In this document: positions 902 to 64,000 of the stretch, piece after piece | Numbering within the stretch: position 1 is the first letter of the stretch | Layout: every line of letters begins with the position of its first letter | NCBI GenBank assembly: GCA_963662335.2 | Contig: CAXXVD010000001.1 | Location: 96,001 to 160,000, forward strand | Length of the DNA stretch: 64,000 bases | Direction of reading: 5' to 3' | Source of the DNA: Chloroflexota bacterium | GTDB taxonomy: Bacteria > Chloroflexota > UBA11872 > VXOZ01 | The notes under the pieces: model-generated | Database searches by the model: none | Seen by the model: the letters and a program-made list of their open reading frames with translations, nothing else | Told to the model about the DNA's origin: nothing | Position numbers and translations under genes: made by a program

Positions 902-1576
902 CTATTCCCGATCGCGCGCCTGAAGCACGCATCGGAGGAGACGCAAAGACTCCACCGCAAACTGTCGTTGATTTGCCCCGCGCCCGCCATCCGGCAGCAG
1001 AAGCGTGGACGTCCAAACACGCTCCCGCCCATCATGCACTTCCGCCGTAGCGCGGGGGCTTGTCCCCCGCCCACGCGCAAGTTCCGCTTCGCTCTCCAGC
1101 CCTTCGGTAGCGCGGGGGCTTGTCCCCCGCTCTTGCGCGGATGTCCCTGCTTCAACCGGCCCGGCCACGGCCAGGCACACCATCCCCACCGGTTTCGCCG
1201 AACGGCGGCCGGTCTGGGGTCCGGCAATACCGCTTTCCGCCAATGCCCATTGACAGTCAAACGCGCCGCGAACATACCGCGCCAACGCCGCTACGTACTC
1301 CTCACTCACGACACCGTGTGTGCGCGCTACACCGCTAATATCCCGCGCCAGCGGCGCGTCGCTGCCGGCATACACGACCACCCCGCCGCGAAACCGCGTC
1401 TCAAACGCGGCGACGGCGCTGAGCGCGCTGGCGAGCGCGCCGCCCCCAGCAGTCTCACCCACCGCCAGCGTCTCGCCGCGCTGGGCAAGCACGTCGCCCA
1501 CCTCTTCCGCCAACCGCCGCAACTCATGGCGGCCGGACTGCGCCGGTTCACTCGGCAAGGGTGCGTTCATCGCCAT
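902..1576 (-). CDS. CinA C-terminal / PncC-like protein with an in-frame REP-derived insertion
   Basis: TLAVGETAGGG, GVVVY, HGVVSEE, SGIAGP and KPVGMVCLAV match the CinA/PncC fold; start overlaps the selB 3' end. Confidence 0.75.
   Translation of the reverse strand: MAMNAPLPSEPAQSGRHELRRLAEEVGDVLAQRGETLAVGETAGGGALASALSAVAAFETRFRGGVVVYAGSDAPLARDISGVARTHGVVSEEYVAALARYVRGAFDCQWALAESGIAGPQTGRRSAKPVGMVCLAVAGPVEAGTSAQERGTSPRATEGLESEAELARGRGTSPRATAEVHDGRERVWTSTLLLPDGGRGANQRQFAVESLRLLRCVLQARDRE
1047..1130 (+). repeat. Two family-A REP copies (1047-1070, 1107-1130) inside the CinA CDS
   Basis: Identical 24-mers 60 bp apart; encode RGTSPRAT twice on the minus strand. Confidence 0.85.
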
Positions 1577-3419
1577 GCCTTCGGGTCACGCCGTCGCGGT
1601 CCATTTGCTCTAGCAGCGGCAGCACGTACTTGCGGCTGGTGCCAAAGGCGTCACGCACCTGGGCCACGGTCGCCCGCCCCTCCCGGCCCAAGAATTCCCG
1701 CACGCGCGCCACCGCCTGCGCGTAGGCCTTACGCGAGTAGACGAGGTCGGTGTCCAGCCGGATGATGCGGCCCTGCGCCGCCAGCACGTTCAGGAAGTCT
1801 TCATCCAGCGCCAACGTCTTGCGCACCTCAGCCAAACTCGGCGGCGCGAACGGCTCCCGCTCCAGCGCGGCGAGCAGCGCGTTTGCGGTCTCTTCCTGCC
1901 GCGCGTCCAGCCCAATGCGAAAACCGAAGAGGCGCAACGCGCCTTGCTCTTCAGCAACTGCCTCGTCGGCAGAGAGGCGCTGTATGACCTCGTTGAACAC
2001 GCGGCTATGCAAGCCGAGATGACGCCGCACTTCCTCCTTGCCTTGCCCGTTGCGTAGGGGATACCGTTCGTGGAAACCCTGGAGCAGAGCGGTCACGCGC
2101 GCCGTAATCTCAGTCCAACCGGCCGCGGAGTAGAGCGAGCGGCCGAGGTCTACGGCCAGTTCCGCGCCCAACAGCCGCGCCAGGATTTCGTCAATTTCCG
2201 CAGCGGTATGCGGCAGCACACCGGCGATCTCGGCGCGCGTGCAGGGCTCCCGTTGCCGTAAGGCCTGCAGAACGACGTCGTCGGGTGAGCCGCGTTCCAA
2301 CGTAGCCAAAGCCGCGATCACGTCGTGCGCAAAGCGTTTGTGGCGCGGCGGGTAGGGGTCGAGCACTTCCCCGCCGCCCAGCGTGCACGCCGGGCTGAGC
2401 TGGCGGAGGATGAAGAGGTCGCCCTTGCTGAGGCACACCGGCTTTACGAGCAGCAGTTGCGCCAGCCCGTCCGCCCCGGGCGGGATTGATTCGCGGTCGA
2501 GCAGACGCACCCGCGCCAGCGTCTCCATGGTCCCGCTGTGGAAGGCCACCACGGTCCCATGCGCCAGCGGCCGCGGCGCGGCGGGCAAGACGCGCACGCG
2601 CACGTCGGCGAAGCGCGTGGCGGCGAGCCTTTGTGGCAACGTCAGCACCTGACCGCGATAGACGTCATCCGTGTCAACGCCGCCGACGTTCACGGCAACG
2701 CGATTGCCGGGCAGGGCGGACTCCAGCGCGTGCTTGTGACTCTGCAAGCCGCGAATGCGGCCGCTCACGTTGCCGGGGACGAACTGCACGTCGTCACCGA
2801 CCTGCAGTTGACCGTCCAGCAGCGTGCCGGTAACGATTGTGCCGAAGCCGCTGAGCGTAAACGCCCGGTCGATGGGCAGGCGCGGCCGGCCTACGTCTCG
2901 CTTCGCCGCCGTTTCCGCGAGCAAGGCGTCTAGGGCCGCGCGGAGCGCGTCCAGCCCCTGGCCCGTGACCGCGGAGACGCGCACGAGCGGGCTGTCGGCG
3001 AGCACGGTCTCCGCCACCGTCTCACGTGCTTCTTCTTCTACGAGTTGCAGCCACTCTTCATCCTCCACCAGGTCGCAGCGCGTCAATACCAGGATGCCCG
3101 CCGGCACGCGCAGCAAGTCGAGAATATCCAGGTGCTCGCGGGTCTGCGGCATCACGCCTTCGTCGGCGGCAATCACCAGCAGCGCCGCGTCGATGCCGCC
3201 CACGCCGGCCAGCATGTTCTTGATGAAGCGCTCGTGGCCCGGCACGTCTACAATGGAAATCTCCTTGCCGCTGGGCAGGGAGAGCCAGGCGAAGCCCAGG
3301 TCGATCGTCAACCCGCGCTCTTTCTCCTCGCGGAGCCGGTCCGGGTCGATGCCGGTGAGCGCCTGGATGAGCGTGGACTTGCCGTGGTCTACGTGTCCCG
3401 CGGTGCCGATCGTGTACAT
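1548..3419 (-). CDS. selB: Selenocysteine-specific translation elongation factor
   Basis: [44 protein letters not shown], and C-terminal winged-helix region ending [14 protein letters not shown]. Confidence 0.96.
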
Positions 3420-8859: not shown

Positions 8860-8890
8860 ACATGGCGCGCTAGACTGAGTAGGCGCTCTC

Positions 8891-9064
8891 TGTCATTCCG
8901 AGCGCAGCGAGGAATCTCGTGTTGCAGTAGGGCGGCAATCCGCATCCCCGTGGCGCGGGGGCTTGCCCCCCGCTTTGGGCAATTGAAGGTGGGGGCTTGT
9001 CCTCCGCTTTGGGCCGGATTGACTGACCGCGGGGCAGATGGAATCCGGCTTGCGCCGGAATGAC
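8891..9064. repeat. Mixed REP cluster (family B TGTCATTCCGAGCGCAGCGAGGAATCT, two degenerate family A, one dRS3-like)
   Basis: Direct sequence match to copies elsewhere in the window. Confidence 0.7.
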
Positions 9065-10118: not shown

Positions 10119-10160
10119 CCGCGCCGCCGCCGCGAGCGCGCTGCGCCTGACACATGGGCT

Positions 10161-10500
10161 TGCAAATGTCATTCCGAGCGCAGCGAGGAATCTAATGCTG
10201 CTGCTGCTGCTGCTGCTCGTGCAGTGCCGTACTCTAGATTCCTCACTTCGTTCCACCGGCGGCATGCAAATGTCATTCCGAGCGCAGCGAGGAATCTAGA
10301 GACGCTGATTGCGCAGGGCCGTACTCTAGATTCCTCACTTCGCTCCACCGGCGGCATGCAAATGTCATTCCGAGCGCAGCGAGGAATCTAGAGACGCTGA
10401 TTGTGCAGGGCTGTACTCTAGATTCCGCGAACAGGGTTCGACACTTCGCTGCGCTCCGTTCGGAATGACGCGTGAAGTCAGTTCTGGAAAACATGCCCCC
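10161..10500. repeat. Tandem array of three family-B REP doublets (BIME/REPIN-like), with a (GCT)7 microsatellite in the first spacer
   Basis: TGCAAATGTCATTCCGAGCGCAGCGAGGAATCTA at about 10161, 10265 and 10357, each followed by TACTCTAGATTCC. Confidence 0.85.
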
Positions 10501-10634
10501 GTCGGCCCGCCCGCGCCCCGCCGGCGGCAGTAAACCGCGACCGGTTGTAGGCGCGCGCACAGATAAATGTCCCGCATCCGGTATACTAGGACTAGAGCCG
10601 CCAAGACGCGCGTTGCAAGAGGAGGTTGCGCGGC

Positions 10635-11372
10635 ATGATACTCGAGGTTGGCATTGCCTTCGGCGCCGGCGTTCTCTCCTTCCTCTCACCCTGCTTTCTG
10701 CCGCTGGTGCCCGCCTATCTGGTCTATCTCGGCGGCCGCCACGTCAACGCGGTGCGCCACGATCAGCCGGCCCAGCGCGCCGTCATCATCAATGCGCTCG
10801 CCTTCATTCTCGGCTTTGGCACGATCTTCGTCGCGCTGGGCGTTGCCATCACGTTCGTCGGCCTGGCTTTTCAGCAGGGCTTGCCGACAATGCGGCTCGT
10901 GGGCGGCGCGCTGCTGGTCGTCTTTGGCTTGAGTTTTCTTGGGTTCCTGCGCATTCCCTGGCTGCAGCAGATCCTGCAGCGTGAGGTCTCGCTCCGCAAT
11001 ACGCCCCTGGGGCGCATCGACACCGAAAAGACCGGCCCGCCCACGTCGTTCTTGATTGGCCTCGTGTTCGGCACCGGCTGGACGCCGTGCGTGGGGCCGA
11101 TTCTTTCCGGGATTTTGCTCCAGGCCTCCGGCTCCGGCACCGTGCTCCAGGGCGGCATTCTGCTGGCAATCTACGCCGCCGGTATGGGCCTGCCGTTTCT
11201 TGCAATGGCGGTGGCGATCGAGCGCGCTAGCGCGGTCCTGAACTGGCTCAAGTCACACATGCTCGTGGTAGAGCGGGCGAGCGGGGTCTTCTTGATACTC
11301 ATGGGCATCGCGGTCGCGTCCAATTTCCTCGCGTACGTCAGCAGTATTCTCGGATTGTATTCGTTAGGGTAG
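10635..11372 (+). CDS. ccdA: CcdA/DsbD-beta family transmembrane electron transporter
   Basis: SFLSPCFLPLVP and GWTPCVGP (both redox Cys), about six TM segments, GAGGAGG RBS. Confidence 0.9.
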   Translation: MILEVGIAFGAGVLSFLSPCFLPLVPAYLVYLGGRHVNAVRHDQPAQRAVIINALAFILGFGTIFVALGVAITFVGLAFQQGLPTMRLVGGALLVVFGLSFLGFLRIPWLQQILQREVSLRNTPLGRIDTEKTGPPTSFLIGLVFGTGWTPCVGPILSGILLQASGSGTVLQGGILLAIYAAGMGLPFLAMAVAIERASAVLNWLKSHMLVVERASGVFLILMGIAVASNFLAYVSSILGLYSLG

Positions 11373-11483
11373 GCGCCCGAGACGACCGCGAGCCACAGCC
11401 CGCCTACAGAGGTGAAGAGCGCCAATGCCGGCGCGAGGATATACGTCATTCACAGGACGACTGCTATGAAGAGGAGGAAGGCA

Positions 11484-12140
11484 ATGCAACGGAGACGCCT
11501 ACTGTCACTGCTGTTCGCCGGCGCGTCCGCCACCGCCCTGGCGGCCTGCGGCGGCGGGTCGGACGAGACGGATGCGGCGGAAGAAGAGACTGCCGGCTCC
11601 GCGCAGGGGTCCGCAGCGGAGCCTACCGCGGCCCCAAAACAGGCGGAGATTCCCCCAACCCCCGCGCCCACCGCGGCGCCGGAACTGGACTTGCCCATGC
11701 TGGGCAAAGCGCCCGAAATCAACCTCGACACGTGGTTCAATTCCGAGCCAATTACGATGGCCAGCCTGGAGGGCAAGGCCGCGGCCCTGGTGGTCTTCTG
11801 GACCTACACCTGACCGGTGTGCCGCAGCGAAGTCCCCAGTTTGGTGGACCTCTTCAATACCTATCACGACGATAGGTTCAAGCTCATCACCGTGCACTTC
11901 CCGTATGCCGGCTCATCCCTGGACGCGGCGAAGATCAAGGAGCAAGCGGACAATCTTGGCGTCACCTATCCCGTTGTCGTCGACAACGACCTCTCGCTTT
12001 GGAATGCCTACGGCAACCGCGTGTTCCCGTCCTTCTACGGCATCGACCGGCAGGGCAACATCCGCTTTGCCAAGTTCGGCGGCGGCGACGGCATGGAAGC
12101 CGTTTTCGAAGCGGTGAAGAAACTCAAGGAGTTTGGCTAG
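11484..12140 (+). CDS. Tat-type lipoprotein thioredoxin-fold redoxin (TlpA/DipZ-like), putative selenoprotein with UxxC; TGA at 11811-11813 read as Sec
   Basis: MQRRRLL..LAAC signal; VVFWTYT-TGA-PVC continues in frame into ITVHFP, YPVVVDND, YGNRVFPSFYGIDRQGNIRF; split by the track into 11412..11813 and 11817..12140. Confidence 0.85.
11832..11849 (+). promoter_or_regulatory. Candidate bacterial SECIS hairpin
   Basis: GTCC-CCA-GTT-TGG-T-GGAC starting 18 nt after the TGA; same geometry as the hairpin at 60948-60965. Confidence 0.55.
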
Positions 12141-12358
12141 CGGGTTAGAGCCACCTGCCCTGGCAAGTGTTGGTTCGATTGTGTGTCCGTTCGCGGGGCG
12201 ACTGCTGCGCTGCGGACGGACAGTCATTTAACCCCCCCCCCCCTTAAACTCTCGCGCAGCCAGTAACTCGTGTTTCCCCCGGCATTGCCTCAGCCGTTAC
12301 GCGCCGCCTGTGCTAGGCTTGTGAGAACGGTTGCCAACACAGCAAAGGAGCGCATGGA

Positions 12359-13660
12359 ATGGACACCCAAAGTCTTCCCCAGCCCGCGCCGACGCCGGGC
12401 AATACCGCCTGGTGGACCCACGACCGTTTCGGCCTCTTCATCCACTGGGGCATCTACGCCCTGGCCGGCCGCCACGAGTGGGTGAAGAAATATGAAGAGA
12501 TCAGCGACGCGGACTACCAGCCGTACTTCGACCACTTCGATCCCGATCTCTACGACCCGGCGGAATGGGCGCGCGCGGCGCGGCAGGCCGGCATGAGGTA
12601 CGTCGTCCTTACCAGCAAGCACCACGACGGCTTCTGCCTGTGGGACAGCCAACTCACCGGCTACAAAGCCACCAACACGCCCGCCAAGCGCGACCTGCTG
12701 CGGCCCTTTGTCGAAGCCTTTCGCGCCGAGGGGCTAAAAGTGGGGTTCTACTACTCGCTCATCGACTGGCATCACCCTGAGTTTCCCGTGGACGGGGTGC
12801 ATCCCCAGGCCAACGACCTGGCGTTCCGGGAAGCTACCAAAGACCGCGACGTGCGCAAATACGCGGAGTATCTTCACGGCCAAGTGCGCGAAATCCTGAC
12901 CATGTTCGGTACCATCGACCTGCTCTGGCTCGACTTCTCGTATTCGCAGCAGGACTATGGCTGGAGCAGGGGCAAAGGCAAGGACGACTGGCAGAGCGAG
13001 GAACTCATCGCGATGGTGCGCGAAATAAACCCCGACATCATCATCAACAACCGCAGCGAAATCGAGCAGGACTTCCACACGCCGGAACAGTTCATCCCGC
13101 CCAGTTGGCTGCACGTGGACGGCAAGCCGGTGAACTGGGAGGCCTGCCAGACCCTGAACGGCTCCTGGGGCTACCACCGCGACAACCTGGACTGGAAGTC
13201 GCCAACGCTGCTGGTGCAGATGCTGATCGACTGCGTTTCGAAAGGCGGCAACATGCTCTTGAACGTCGGCCCTACGGCCCGCGGCCAGTTCGATCCCCGC
13301 GCCCAGGCGACGCTCGGCGCAATCGGGGGCTGGATGCGCCGGCACGGGCGCGCGATCTACGGCTGCACGCAGGCGCCGTTCACGCCCCCACGAGATTGCC
13401 GCTACACGTACAACCCCGAAACGAACCGGCTCTACCTGCACGTGCTCGCCTGGCCGCTGAAGTACCTGCACCTACCCGGCCTGCGCGGCCGCGTGCGCTA
13501 CGCCCAACTGCTGCACGACGGCTCGGAAGTCAAGACTTTGGACTTCACCCAACACCACCGCTACCCCAGCGGCGGCGAAGACCTGCTCACGCTGGAACTG
13601 CCCATCCAGATGCCTGACAATCTTGCGCCGGTGGTTGAACTCTTCTTGAACGACAGATAG
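12359..13660 (+). CDS. Alpha-L-fucosidase (GH29)
   Basis: RFGLFIHWG, TSKHHDGF, YYSLIDWHHP, LWLD, WEAC.T...WGY, NMLLNVGP. Confidence 0.9.
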   Translation: MDTQSLPQPAPTPGNTAWWTHDRFGLFIHWGIYALAGRHEWVKKYEEISDADYQPYFDHFDPDLYDPAEWARAARQAGMRYVVLTSKHHDGFCLWDSQLTGYKATNTPAKRDLLRPFVEAFRAEGLKVGFYYSLIDWHHPEFPVDGVHPQANDLAFREATKDRDVRKYAEYLHGQVREILTMFGTIDLLWLDFSYSQQDYGWSRGKGKDDWQSEELIAMVREINPDIIINNRSEIEQDFHTPEQFIPPSWLHVDGKPVNWEACQTLNGSWGYHRDNLDWKSPTLLVQMLIDCVSKGGNMLLNVGPTARGQFDPRAQATLGAIGGWMRRHGRAIYGCTQAPFTPPRDCRYTYNPETNRLYLHVLAWPLKYLHLPGLRGRVRYAQLLHDGSEVKTLDFTQHHRYPSGGEDLLTLELPIQMPDNLAPVVELFLNDR

Positions 13661-60656: not shown

Positions 60657-61226
60657 CTAGGCGTCTTGCTCTTTGAGGTATTCGATAGCGCCGCGCACCA
60701 CGTCGAAGCGGCCCTCGCCGACCTTGGCCAAGCGCACGTCGCCCCGGCGGTCGATGAGGTAGAGGGTCGGCCAGGCGCGGTTGCCAAACGCCCGCCAAAT
60801 CTTGAAGTCGTTGTCGATGGCGACGGGATAGGGCACGCCGAGCCGATCAACGGCCTTGCGCACGTTTTCCACGACCTTCTCGTGGACGAACTCAGGCGTG
60901 TGGATGCTGAGCAGCGTGAAGCGGTCATCCGCGTAGGTGTTGTGAATATCCACCAGACCGGGGATGTCGTTGAGGCAGTTAATTCAGCCGTAGGTCCAGA
61001 AGCCGATCCCAACTGCCGACTTTCCCCGAAAACCCGCCAGCGTAAGCGGCTCCGAGTTGATCCACGTGGCCGAACTAATCTCCGGCGCTTTGCCGAGCCT
61101 CGGTAGACCGTCAAAGTGCCGTACTTCGCCGCCGCCGCTTTCCGTAAGCGACGACCCGCCGCACGCGCTCAGCCCAATTGCCGCTGCGCCGCCGGCCAGT
61201 CCGTAGAGCAGGTTTCGCCTTCGCAT
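60657..61226 (-). CDS. Tat-type lipoprotein thioredoxin-fold redoxin (DipZ-like), putative selenoprotein with UxxC; TGA at 60986-60984 read as Sec
   Basis: MRRRNLL..LSAC; WINSEPL; FWTYG-TGA-INC matches DipZ FWTYxCINC; continues IHTPEF, YPVAIDND, NRAWPTLYLID, VGEG; split by the track into 60984..61229 and 60657..60953. Confidence 0.88.
60948..60965 (-). promoter_or_regulatory. Candidate bacterial SECIS hairpin
   Basis: ATCC-CCG-GTC-TGG-T-GGAT starting 18 nt after the TGA; apical GGUCU resembles the E. coli fdhF SECIS loop. Confidence 0.6.
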
Positions 61227-61241
61227 CACCGGCCTCCTCTA

Positions 61242-63842
61242 TCAGCCCACCACCACGTTTATCAAGCGGCCCGGCACGTATTTGACCAGTCTGACGTCCC
61301 GGCCGTCCAAGAACTGCTGTACGCGCGCGCTCGCCAGCGCCAATTCGCGGGCGCCGTCCTCGTCCAGCGAGACGCTGGCCTCGATCGTATCGCGCACGCG
61401 GCCGTTCACCTGGACGACCAGCGTAAACGTCTCCTCCTGGATGAGCGCCTCGTCGAATTCCGGCCACTCCTGCTGGTGGACGGAGAATTCATGCCCCCAG
61501 CGTTCCCACACTTCCTCGGCCAGGTGGGGCGCGACCGGCGCGAGCACCAGCAGGAACTGTTCCATCGCCGTGCGCCACGTCTCGGTGGCCGCCAACTCCG
61601 GCGAGTAGACTTTGTAGAGCCAGTTGGTAAACTCCATGAAATACGCGACCATGGTGTTGAACTTCATGGCGTCGATGTCCTCGCCGGCGCGCTTGATCAC
61701 GCGGTTGATCCAGCGCGTCAACTCGGCCTCGGCCTTCTCCACCGGCAGCGGCTCGCTGCCCTGCTCCACCCGGCCCAGCAGCATGTTCCACACGCGCACC
61801 AGCCAGCGGCGCGCGCCGGGAATGCCCTCCGTGCTCCACTCGATGTTCTGGTCGAATGGGCCCATGAAGAGTTCATACACGCGCAGCGCGTCAACGCCGA
61901 ACTTCTCTACCATTTCATCCGGGCCAATGACGTTGCCGCGGCTCTTGGACATCCTGCTGCCGTCCGGCGCCAACACCACGCCCTGGTGCCGCAGTTTGGT
62001 AAACGGCTCGTTGAAGTCGATGAGCATGGCGTCTTTGATGACTTTCGTCCAGAAACGCGCGTAGATCAGGTGCATGGTGGCGTGCTCGGCGCCGCCGACG
62101 TAGAGGTCAACCGGCAGCCAGTGGCGCGCTTTGTCCAGGCCGAACGGCAGTTCGTCGTTCTGCGGATCGGCAAAGCGCAGGAAGTACCACGATGAGCACG
62201 CGAACGTATCCATGGTGTCCGTCTCGCGCTCGGCGGGACCGCCGCAGTCCGGGCACGTGGTGGCAACGAACGACCCCGCCTTGGCGAGCGGCGAGCGACC
62301 GTCGCCGGTGGGTTGGAAGTCTTCAATTTCCGGCAGCAGCACCGGCAGTTGCGGCGTGGGCATCTCGACCCAACCGCACTTCGGGCACTTGACCATGGGA
62401 ATTGGCGCGCCCCAGTAGCGCTGGCGCGAAATCAGCCAGTCCCTCATGCGGTATTGCACCTTGGCGCCGCCCAGGTCGCGCTCCTTCAGCCACCCGGTTA
62501 TTCTTTCCCCACCTTCAGTGGACGTTTCGCCGTCGAACGCGCCGGAATTCACCAGCGTGCCTTCGCCCTCGTAGGCGTCGGCAACGGCCCAGTCGACGTC
62601 GTCCGGCGGTTGCACCACCACGCGCACGTCCAGGCCGAACTTCTGAGCGAACTCGAAGTCCCGCTGGTCGTGGGCGGGCACCGCCATGATCGCGCCGGTG
62701 CCGTAGGTCACCAGTACGTAATCGGCGATCCAGATTGGGATGTGTTCGTCGTTCACGGGATTGACGGCGTAGGAGCCGGTGAAGACGCCGGTCTTCTCGC
62801 GCTCGGCGGACTGGCGCTCGGTTTCTTCCGTACGCTCCGCGGCGGCCACGTAGCGCGCCACGGCCTCCTTCTGTTCCGGCTTCGTGAGCTTGTCCACCAG
62901 GTCGTGTTCCGGCGCCAGCACCATGAAAGTCGCGCCGAACAACGTATCCGCGCGCGTGGTAAAGACCCGCAGTTCGTCACCGAATTCCGTCAGAAAGACG
63001 GCTTCCGTGCCCTCGCTGCGGCCAATCCAATTGCGCTGCATCTCCTTGGTGGATTCCGGCCAGTCCAGTTTCTCCAGGTCGTTCAGCAGGCGGTCGGCGT
63101 ACTTGGTAATCGCGAAGTACCACTGCTCCAGGCTCTTCTTCTCCACCAGCGAATCGCAACGCCAGCAGCGGCCGTCGTGCACCTGCTCGTTGGCCAGGAT
63201 GGTCTGGCAGGAAGGACACCACCACTGCTGGCCCTTGGCCTTGTACGCCAAGCCGCGGCGGTGAATCAGCAAGAACAGCCACTGCGTAAACTTGTAGTAT
63301 TCCGGCGCGCTGGAGTCGATCTCGCGCTCCCAATCGAACGAGCACCCAATCAGGTCGAGTTGGCGTTTGTAGTTGGCGGTGTTCTGGTCCACGGTCAGCC
63401 GGGGCGCGATGCCCGTATCGCGGGCGCGGTTCTCGGCGGGCAAGCCAAAGGCGTCCCAACCCATAGGGTGCAGCACGTTATAGCCGCGCATGCGCATCTG
63501 GCGGGAGATGACGTCCGTGGGGATATAGTTGTGGCAGTGACCGACGGAGATGCCGTCCCCCGACGGATACGGGAAGAAGTCAAGACAGTAGAACGTCTTG
63601 CGGCTGTCCTCGCTGTCTGCGGTCTTGTAGAGGCTGGTATCGCGCCAGCGCGCCTGCCAGGCCTGCTCGAAATCCTGCGGCTGGTATTCCTCTGAGACTT
63701 CCTTTGCCGACGCCTGGGTTTCGTCGGCCGGCGCTTCCGCCGGGACGGTCTCCGCTGGGGATTCCTCTGGGTTGGCTTCCGCCGGCGCCGCCACGGGAGT
63801 TTCTACTTCGCCCGCCGCTGCCGGCTCATCCGCTTGGCTCAT
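61242..63842 (-). CDS. leuS: Leucine--tRNA ligase
   Basis: FPYPSG..SVGH, PMGWDAFGLPAEN, LANEQV, MQRNWIGRSEG, FTTRADT, GTGAIMAVPAHDQRD, WLISRQRYWGAPIP, RMSKS, QVNGRVR. Confidence 0.96.
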   Translation of the reverse strand: MSQADEPAAAGEVETPVAAPAEANPEESPAETVPAEAPADETQASAKEVSEEYQPQDFEQAWQARWRDTSLYKTADSEDSRKTFYCLDFFPYPSGDGISVGHCHNYIPTDVISRQMRMRGYNVLHPMGWDAFGLPAENRARDTGIAPRLTVDQNTANYKRQLDLIGCSFDWEREIDSSAPEYYKFTQWLFLLIHRRGLAYKAKGQQWWCPSCQTILANEQVHDGRCWRCDSLVEKKSLEQWYFAITKYADRLLNDLEKLDWPESTKEMQRNWIGRSEGTEAVFLTEFGDELRVFTTRADTLFGATFMVLAPEHDLVDKLTKPEQKEAVARYVAAAERTEETERQSAEREKTGVFTGSYAVNPVNDEHIPIWIADYVLVTYGTGAIMAVPAHDQRDFEFAQKFGLDVRVVVQPPDDVDWAVADAYEGEGTLVNSGAFDGETSTEGGERITGWLKERDLGGAKVQYRMRDWLISRQRYWGAPIPMVKCPKCGWVEMPTPQLPVLLPEIEDFQPTGDGRSPLAKAGSFVATTCPDCGGPAERETDTMDTFACSSWYFLRFADPQNDELPFGLDKARHWLPVDLYVGGAEHATMHLIYARFWTKVIKDAMLIDFNEPFTKLRHQGVVLAPDGSRMSKSRGNVIGPDEMVEKFGVDALRVYELFMGPFDQNIEWSTEGIPGARRWLVRVWNMLLGRVEQGSEPLPVEKAEAELTRWINRVIKRAGEDIDAMKFNTMVAYFMEFTNWLYKVYSPELAATETWRTAMEQFLLVLAPVAPHLAEEVWERWGHEFSVHQQEWPEFDEALIQEETFTLVVQVNGRVRDTIEASVSLDEDGARELALASARVQQFLDGRDVRLVKYVPGRLINVVVG

Positions 63843-64000
63843 GTTCTCCAACGCCTCCGCGTACGTTTTGCGTCCAAATCTACGTCTAGTGATGTAATTC
63901 CGAAGCACTGTACGCCCATTGTAGCATAGAAGGAAGCCTCTCCCCGCTGTAGATTGCAATCTTTCTGTAGCTGTAGCATTTGATGGTGAGATTACGCGAG

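Follow-up and report, generated by a model that had tools for sequence, protein, structure and literature searches.

The gene at 11484-12140 of the window (the whole 64-kb stretch of Chloroflexota DNA analysed here) carries an in-frame UGA at the active site of a thioredoxin-fold domain, and this UGA is very probably decoded as selenocysteine (Sec). The product would be a Sec-containing thioredoxin-fold lipoprotein that is reduced by the product of the adjoining ccdA gene and acts on exported proteins. As a whole, we consider this explanation probable. Its parts differ in strength and are taken in turn below, and the coordinates of the features are collected in Table 1.

Table 1. Features of the selenoprotein locus and related genes, in window coordinates
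Feature	Position	Strand	Basis or remark
selB, Sec-specific elongation factor	1548..3419	-	TIGR00475 at 381.6 bits (cut-off 242.25)
ccdA, DsbD/CcdA-type membrane electron transporter	10626..11372	+	PF02683 at 70 bits; both redox Cys (SPC, TPC)
Shine-Dalgarno-like GGAGG	11473..11477	+	6 nt before ATG 11484; read from the sequence
Predicted selenoprotein gene	11484..12140	+	218 codons + stop; DipZ/YkuV-type TlpA-like thioredoxin-fold protein
Predicted signal peptide with RR and lipobox L-A-A-C	11484..11549	+	Cys22 codon 11547-11549
Thioredoxin-fold domain, residues ~70-218	11691..12137	+	pLDDT >95; Foldseek; phmmer against PDB, E 1e-23
TGA, predicted Sec codon (U110)	11811..11813	+	first position of UxxC
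TGC, predicted resolving Cys113 of UxxC	11820..11822	+	invariant column in the 60-sequence alignment
SECIS-like hairpin	11829..11852	+	9 pairs, one bulged U, GUU loop 11839-11841; starts 15 nt after the UGA
Second UxxC lipoprotein paralogue, 190 aa	60657..61229	-	GFWTYG-U-INC; TGA 60984-60986

The in-frame TGA, its conservation and the Sec machinery

A single frame runs from the ATG to the TAG at 12138-12140, and the only TGA within it is that at the active site. Read with this TGA as U, it gives 218 residues (...VVFWTYT-U-PVC-RSEV...) in three parts: a signal-like N-terminus, a linker rich in Pro, Ala, Glu and Thr, and a thioredoxin-fold domain that holds the FWTYT-U-PVC motif. Pfam matches to AhpC-TSA (PF00578; 49.7 bits, cut-off 26), Redoxin (46.6 bits) and Thioredoxin_8 (28.4 bits) cover residues 75-202 and thus span the TGA. 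In an AlphaFold2 model built from 60 aligned relatives, U110 lies between the strand 100-106 and the helix 111-127, which is the classical position of the CxxC motif. The frame and the model therefore confirm what a preliminary description had seen in the bare letters, a TGA in the place of the first Cys of a thioredoxin CxxC, with the frame continuing through the rest of the fold.

A six-frame search of the genomes of 40 relatives recovered an orthologue in 15 of the 16 other genomes of the genus (65-81% identity) and a second copy in 14 genomes of the genus (56-73%). A third paralogue type (44-50%) is found in all 16 and in the window's own genome; the one genome lacking an orthologue, G014 (69% complete), has this third type only. 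When the active-site column was aligned for 44 tblastn matches from 30 loci, it read U in 32 and C in 12. TGA occupies the column in every one of the 31 genus copies aligned (15 orthologues, the window's own gene, 14 second copies and one copy of the third type), an agreement whose independence is overstated because these genomes are kin. The remaining U is that of L047, a more distant long protein, and the 12 Cys forms come from other families of the class and read FWTFG-C-INC and similar. Across a phylum sample of 301 genomes that includes the window's own, 63 gave a match at E <= 1e-18. The TGA form is present in 15 of them (10 of this genus and five that belong to three other families); the matches of the other 48 contain no stop, two of these being unpublished genomes that were used for the count only. 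The five Sec forms from outside the genus were checked at the motif and read FWTYG-U-INC, MWTFG-U-INC or MWTFS-U-INC. U and Cys thus alternate at this position, a pattern that the preliminary description had proposed as a test.

Beyond the TGA, codons +14 to +88 of the 15 orthologues differ per site by 0.101, 0.092 and 0.329 at codon positions 1, 2 and 3, a pattern that marks them as evolving as coding sequence. Independently assembled contigs from three public runs cover the TGA without a differing letter, which gives no sign of an assembly error, with the proviso that the three runs belong to one study and that the source sample may be among them. In the same runs the stretch after the stop codon of the gene may be hard to assemble. 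The long contigs of two runs end at 12141, with 12112-12200 covered by short, shallower contigs only, the contig of the other run departs from the window sequence at about 12142 and stops at 12198, and a run of 12 C lies at 12233-12244, some 90 nt past the stop.

The genome contains the complete machinery for Sec insertion. The selB gene had been recognized in the preliminary description and its match is well above the cut-off; the genome also encodes selA (455 bits), selD (379.6 bits) and a tRNA-Sec (67.8 bits), which ARAGORN calls tRNA-SeC with anticodon tca. The selD gene (C1:382996-383925) itself carries one in-frame TGA, and selenophosphate synthetase is probably a selenoprotein here as well. 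Another selenoprotein of this genome is probably encoded at C5:322264-322635, a TlpA-like frame with an in-frame TGA (...MWASW-U-RC...) that is followed by a TPR region and resembles the WAxxUGC type. No tRNA was found in the 64-kb window, and the sole match in its Rfam gathering scan is a TPP riboswitch (RF00059, 631-744, minus strand, 62.8 bits).

In the consensus for bacterial SECIS elements the loop lies 16-37 nt from the UGA and has G among its first two bases, and the bSECISearch model requires G in the apical loop. The hairpin that follows the UGA here appears in the minimum-energy structure computed for the local 76 nt (z -2.1), a stability that 5 of 200 shuffled sequences also reach. 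Over the 31 genus copies, which comprise 25 distinct sequences, 95.1% of cells pair, compared with 33-60% once the partners are shifted by one to three columns. One pair (22-39) covaries, being A-U in 17 and G-C in eight of the distinct sequences and never unpaired; where one side changes from a Val to an Ile codon, the other carries a compensating synonymous change between GAC and GAT. As a single pair among related sequences this covariation is modest on its own, and the stronger indication of a constrained hairpin is the suppression of synonymous change. Among 29 copies, mean synonymous identity is 0.93 over codons +5 to +13 against 0.64 for the whole stretch, and codons +5 to +11 and +13 each use one codon for the commonest residue. 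The five most conserved of 139 nine-codon windows, ranked by synonymous sites, start at codons +2 to +6. A permissive Rfam scan of 11780-11900 returned no SECIS family and two chance snoRNA matches (E 2-2.7), as is to be expected because bacterial SECIS elements are described as diverse in passages of a recent review (PMC9312934).

The paralogue at the other end of the window has the same general make-up. It combines an RR pair with a lipobox (LSAC), lies 10 nt downstream of leuS (61239-63959, minus strand), has counterparts in all 16 relatives of the genus and resembles the Sec forms of one of the other families (f64; G280 and G303). By eye, its sequence can form a hairpin in the same register; single-sequence folding of the stretch after its TGA does not prefer it (z -0.82). 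At the locus itself, 14 of the 16 other genus genomes hold two convergent UxxC copies with N-terminal halves that are near-identical within a genome, an arrangement that points to inverted duplication combined with gene conversion. In the window's genome and in G011 a single copy is present there, right after ccdA, and its closest counterpart is the copy that elsewhere lies distal. Longer relatives were also seen in other families of the class. These are open frames of 547-614 aa, L047 among them, with FWTFC-U-INC in a thioredoxin domain (residues 75-194), and may be Sec-containing proteins in which a thioredoxin domain is joined to an extension.

Predicted export and anchoring, and the neighbouring ccdA

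The N-terminal sequence is MQRRRLLSLLFAGASATALAACGGGS, of which MQRRRLLSLLFAGASATALAAC-GGGS forms the signal-like part. Residues 19-22 (LAAC) fit the lipobox pattern L-[AS]-[GA]-C after a hydrophobic signal, and an RR pair together with an L-[AS]-A-C-G lipobox is present in 31 of the 31 genus copies aligned. The genome encodes LspA (signal peptidase II) and TatC. Lgt (PF01790) was not found in the 5-contig, 96%-complete assembly, and because all 16 relatives in the genus have it we regard this as a probable assembly gap. Lipoprotein anchoring, with Cys22 as the predicted site, is likely. Of the twin-arginine-like signal plus lipobox proposed in the preliminary description, the lipobox and the RR pair are upheld by every copy; the twin-arginine reading remains a pattern, with a conserved RR, a TatC in the genome and a weak motif context. 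The linker extends to about residue 65, and the model is disordered over residues 1-65, with pLDDT <50 over residues 6-49.

The gene directly upstream had been identified in the preliminary description as ccdA with both redox Cys residues, and the PF02683 match and the two motifs agree with this. At all 16 genus loci ccdA adjoins a UxxC copy. It directly precedes the window-type gene in the window, G011 and G016; at the other 13 loci it precedes the second copy, on which the window-like copy converges. Among Cys relatives, ccdA is adjacent at six of the ten loci L035-L044 and also at L071-L073 and L078-L080. Three further loci carry fusions. L067 has the full DipZ architecture in Pfam (DsbD_TM, thioredoxin and Thioredoxin_10), L068 is a DsbD_TM-thioredoxin fusion by Pfam with the CcdA and thioredoxin matches in one open frame, and at L069 tblastn places both matches in one open frame. 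Fusions of CcdA with a thioredoxin are a classical sign of a functional pair, and these natural examples lead us to read ccdA and the selenoprotein gene as a split DipZ. Reduction by CcdA, as put forward in the preliminary description, thus gains support from conserved adjacency and from the fusions, and we infer from these genomic data that CcdA is likely to be the reductant. The pairing is frequent and not obligatory by the loci sampled, since no ccdA was found within the 1.5-4 kb fetched around each of the five Sec forms outside the genus, nor near the paralogue at 60657-61229.

Between ccdA and the selenoprotein gene, a scan of 10300-12450 detected neither a promoter-like nor a terminator-like site, which weakly fits co-transcription. 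The pair is flanked by prs, an alpha-L-fucosidase gene and a gene for a sugar-binding protein, none of which gives a clue to the substrate. The gap between prs and ccdA contains, at 10157-10456, a 92-nt unit in two full copies (95% alike) and a partial third, with the sequence GTCATTCCGAGCGCAGCGAGGAATCT. The core of the unit recurs at 8881-8934, similar peptide traces occur near 58.5 kb, and the unit looks like a dispersed intergenic repeat. Elsewhere in the genome, a second ccdA (C5:474387) has as its neighbour a molybdopterin oxidoreductase that includes an NrfD-type subunit.

These elements suggest the following scheme. SelB, helped by the hairpin, would insert Sec at the UGA. The protein would be exported, probably cleaved and lipid-anchored at Cys22, and the flexible linker of some 45 residues would tether the catalytic domain at the outer face of the cytoplasmic membrane. 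There the U110-x-x-C113 centre would alternate between a selenolate/thiol and a selenenylsulfide form. CcdA, encoded 111 nt upstream, would carry electrons from cytoplasmic thioredoxin across the membrane and re-reduce the selenoprotein, the two together functioning as a split DipZ. In its reduced state the selenoprotein would then reduce disulfides or sulfenates of exported proteins.

Of the possible roles, repair or oxidant defence is slightly favoured, at less than even odds; a part in the maturation of cytochrome c or copper centres is somewhat less likely, and some other role equally so. System I genes (ccmA, B, C, E, F and H) and a Sco protein gene are located on another contig (C2:399-410 kb), no thioredoxin gene was found in or beside this Ccm cluster, and two ordinary CxxC proteins of the TlpA-like type (WCGPC and WCPHC) that are encoded elsewhere in the genome could serve it. 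ResB was not found in the 96%-complete assembly. MsrA and MsrB were also not found in that assembly, and with them the target best studied for surface thioredoxin lipoproteins seems to be missing here. A more far-reaching conjecture, which we think improbable, is that the CcdA relay of the genus ends in selenoproteins, with two or three Sec-containing DipZ-type lipoproteins forming a selenol-based reducing system at the outer face and one of them taking a CcmG/ResA-like role in the maturation of cytochrome c or copper centres. If true, this would make a selenoenzyme the terminal thioredoxin of a CcdA/DsbD pathway, an arrangement of which the literature we searched holds no description.

The protein could also be a genuine selenoprotein for which CcdA is not the reductant, or which is not a reductase at all, acting instead as a peroxide-scavenging Prx-like enzyme, as a thiol oxidase or isomerase, or in the handling of selenium or metals at the cell surface. 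The best Pfam match is indeed AhpC-TSA, the function of the DipZ-type domain is not established, no target gene is linked to the locus, and the Sec forms of three other families and the paralogue behind leuS stand without a nearby ccdA. However, the adjacency to ccdA holds at all 16 genus loci, CcdA-thioredoxin fusions occur in the same subfamily, and the UxxC lies at the thioredoxin position and not at the TxxC position of peroxiredoxins. We judge this alternative unlikely and retain the CcdA-reduced lipoprotein as the preferred reading.

Readings of the TGA other than Sec fare worse. A variant code or near-cognate suppression might place Trp, Cys or Gly at the site, and one minus-strand orthologue (L026, in G004) could be taken in this sense: it has a second in-frame TGA (...LTG-TGA-FNSEP...) at a Trp codon that is conserved in all other copies. 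This second TGA could stem from a sequencing error or a fresh nonsense mutation, or it could be read through, and the copy was excluded from the alignments for the 60-sequence set and for the synonymous-site and codon-position analyses. Against decoding as another residue, TGA terminates ordinary genes here, leuS being an example, the Sec system is complete with its tca tRNA, and the residue that alternates with U at this position of the redox motif is specifically Cys, with a constrained hairpin following; we regard such decoding as very improbable. A reading of the TGA as a true stop or a defect, by which the frame would be a pseudogene, contain a sequencing error or consist of two separate small genes, is hardly credible and already contradicted: translation table 11 does give two ORFs (11412..11813 and 11817..12140), but the TGA stands in 31 of 31 genus copies and in the contigs of three runs, homology to DipZ spans it, and conserved amino acids with a three-fold excess of third-position change follow it. 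The two ORFs also bear out the preliminary claim that standard gene calling misses the gene. A protein database search returned 10 matches, three of which, fragments of 119-121 aa without Pfam domains that might be counted in favour of a true stop, would fit the product of truncation at the TGA.

Relation to known selenoproteins and thioredoxin-fold proteins

By sequence and predicted structure, the nearest type is the DipZ/YkuV subtype of the TlpA-like superfamily. A phmmer search of the PDB ranked DipZ first, followed by YkuV (E 1.4e-21) and then ResA, StoA and others. Foldseek on the model gave the same order, with DipZ entries at the top (5cyy and 2hyx; ranks 1-6 are DipZ-type), followed by YkuV (2b5x), ResA and pneumococcal Etrx2. 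Proteins of the NHLRC2/SOQ1 type were also seen among the Foldseek neighbours. No NCBIfam model scores above its cut-off, and those for ResA, StoA, TlpA and WAxxUGC fall far below, so no curated equivalog covers the selenoprotein and automatic pipelines will probably keep missing the gene.

UxxC selenoproteins with PF00578 have been a listed family since the mid-2000s, according to passages of a 2006 survey and a later review (PMC1794560, PMC9312934). The survey counted eight members of the Prx-like family and, for Chloroflexi, only three selenoproteins in three families (PMC1794560). The relevant sections of two reviews define a 'Prx-like thiol:disulfide oxidoreductase' family by PF00578 together with UxxC or UxxU, and list thiol:disulfide interchange, DsbA-like, DsbG-like and UGC-containing TlpA-like selenoproteins beside it (PMC9312934, PMC13188914). 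By these printed criteria the window's protein belongs to the known Prx-like selenoproteins: it has PF00578 and a UxxC motif with the predicted Sec first (U110-P-V-C113), and the logic of prediction, a Cys homologue and a SECIS element, is the same as ours. It stands apart within that family in being nearest to DipZ and YkuV, in its lipoprotein signal, in its place beside ccdA and in its copy number, which is two to three per genome in this genus of Chloroflexota.

A preprint describes lipoprotein selenoproteins as well (bioRxiv 10.1101/2022.07.06.499078). The preliminary description had held that the architecture and context of the gene might be new. The UxxC-PF00578 combination and the lipoprotein nature are thus known already, and the newer parts are the ccdA pairing, the DipZ subtype and the presence of two to three copies in each genome. 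In the literature we searched, outside which lay most subscription journals and supplementary files, there was no Sec form of the DipZ/YkuV subtype, no pairing of one with ccdA and no genus with two to three such genes.

The gene opens no new category, as UxxC thioredoxin-fold selenoproteins, lipoproteins included, are already in the literature. It does correct a systematic error of annotation, in which the TGA causes this gene and its paralogues to be split or truncated, and it adds a well-supported case of Cys/Sec alternation to the DipZ/YkuV branch of the TlpA-like proteins. It would also tie a selenoprotein to the CcdA transmembrane electron relay and point to a lineage that keeps several selenoproteins predicted to be exported. 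If confirmed, this would offer a natural system in which to study the benefit of Sec over Cys in the oxidising space beyond the membrane, resistance to over-oxidation and faster exchange being two candidates.

Among the other known selenoproteins, those of the NCBIfam model WAxxUGC_long (UGC-containing TlpA-like selenoproteins) are likewise TlpA-like; they differ in their motif, UGC instead of UxxC, and the window's protein scores 30.7 against a cut-off of 300. ResA, CcmG and TlpA depend on CcdA or DsbD. They have the fold and the extracytoplasmic site in common with the window's protein, which nevertheless scores far from the equivalogs (ResA 48.2 against 170, TlpA 23.9 against 230; NCBIfam). 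Unlike what would be expected of a ResA, TlpA or CcmG, its gene shows no linkage to ccm or sco, both of which are on contig C2. In Streptococcus pneumoniae, Etrx1 and Etrx2 are re-reduced by their partners CcdA1 and CcdA2. Both are surface-exposed thioredoxin-fold lipoproteins, as stated in PMC3914529, and Etrx2 is one of the top structural matches. They have Cys in place of Sec and pass electrons to the surface methionine sulfoxide reductase MsrAB2, whereas MsrA and MsrB were not found in the window's genome.

The closest likeness is to DipZ of M. tuberculosis (2hyx, 5cyy), which matches best in sequence (E 1.1e-23, 87 bits) and, for the thioredoxin domain, also in structure. The two have in common the FW.Y.[CU].xC motif context and the link to a CcdA module. 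DipZ, however, is a single polypeptide that combines a CcdA-like membrane domain, a thioredoxin domain with Cys and a C-terminal domain. The last of these (Thioredoxin_10, PF17991) was absent from the Pfam scan of the window's protein, unlike DipZ, and is found in Cys relatives. In the window, ccdA is a separate gene that ends at 11372, the thioredoxin-fold protein would be held at the membrane by its lipobox anchor, and Sec would take the place of Cys as the attacking residue.
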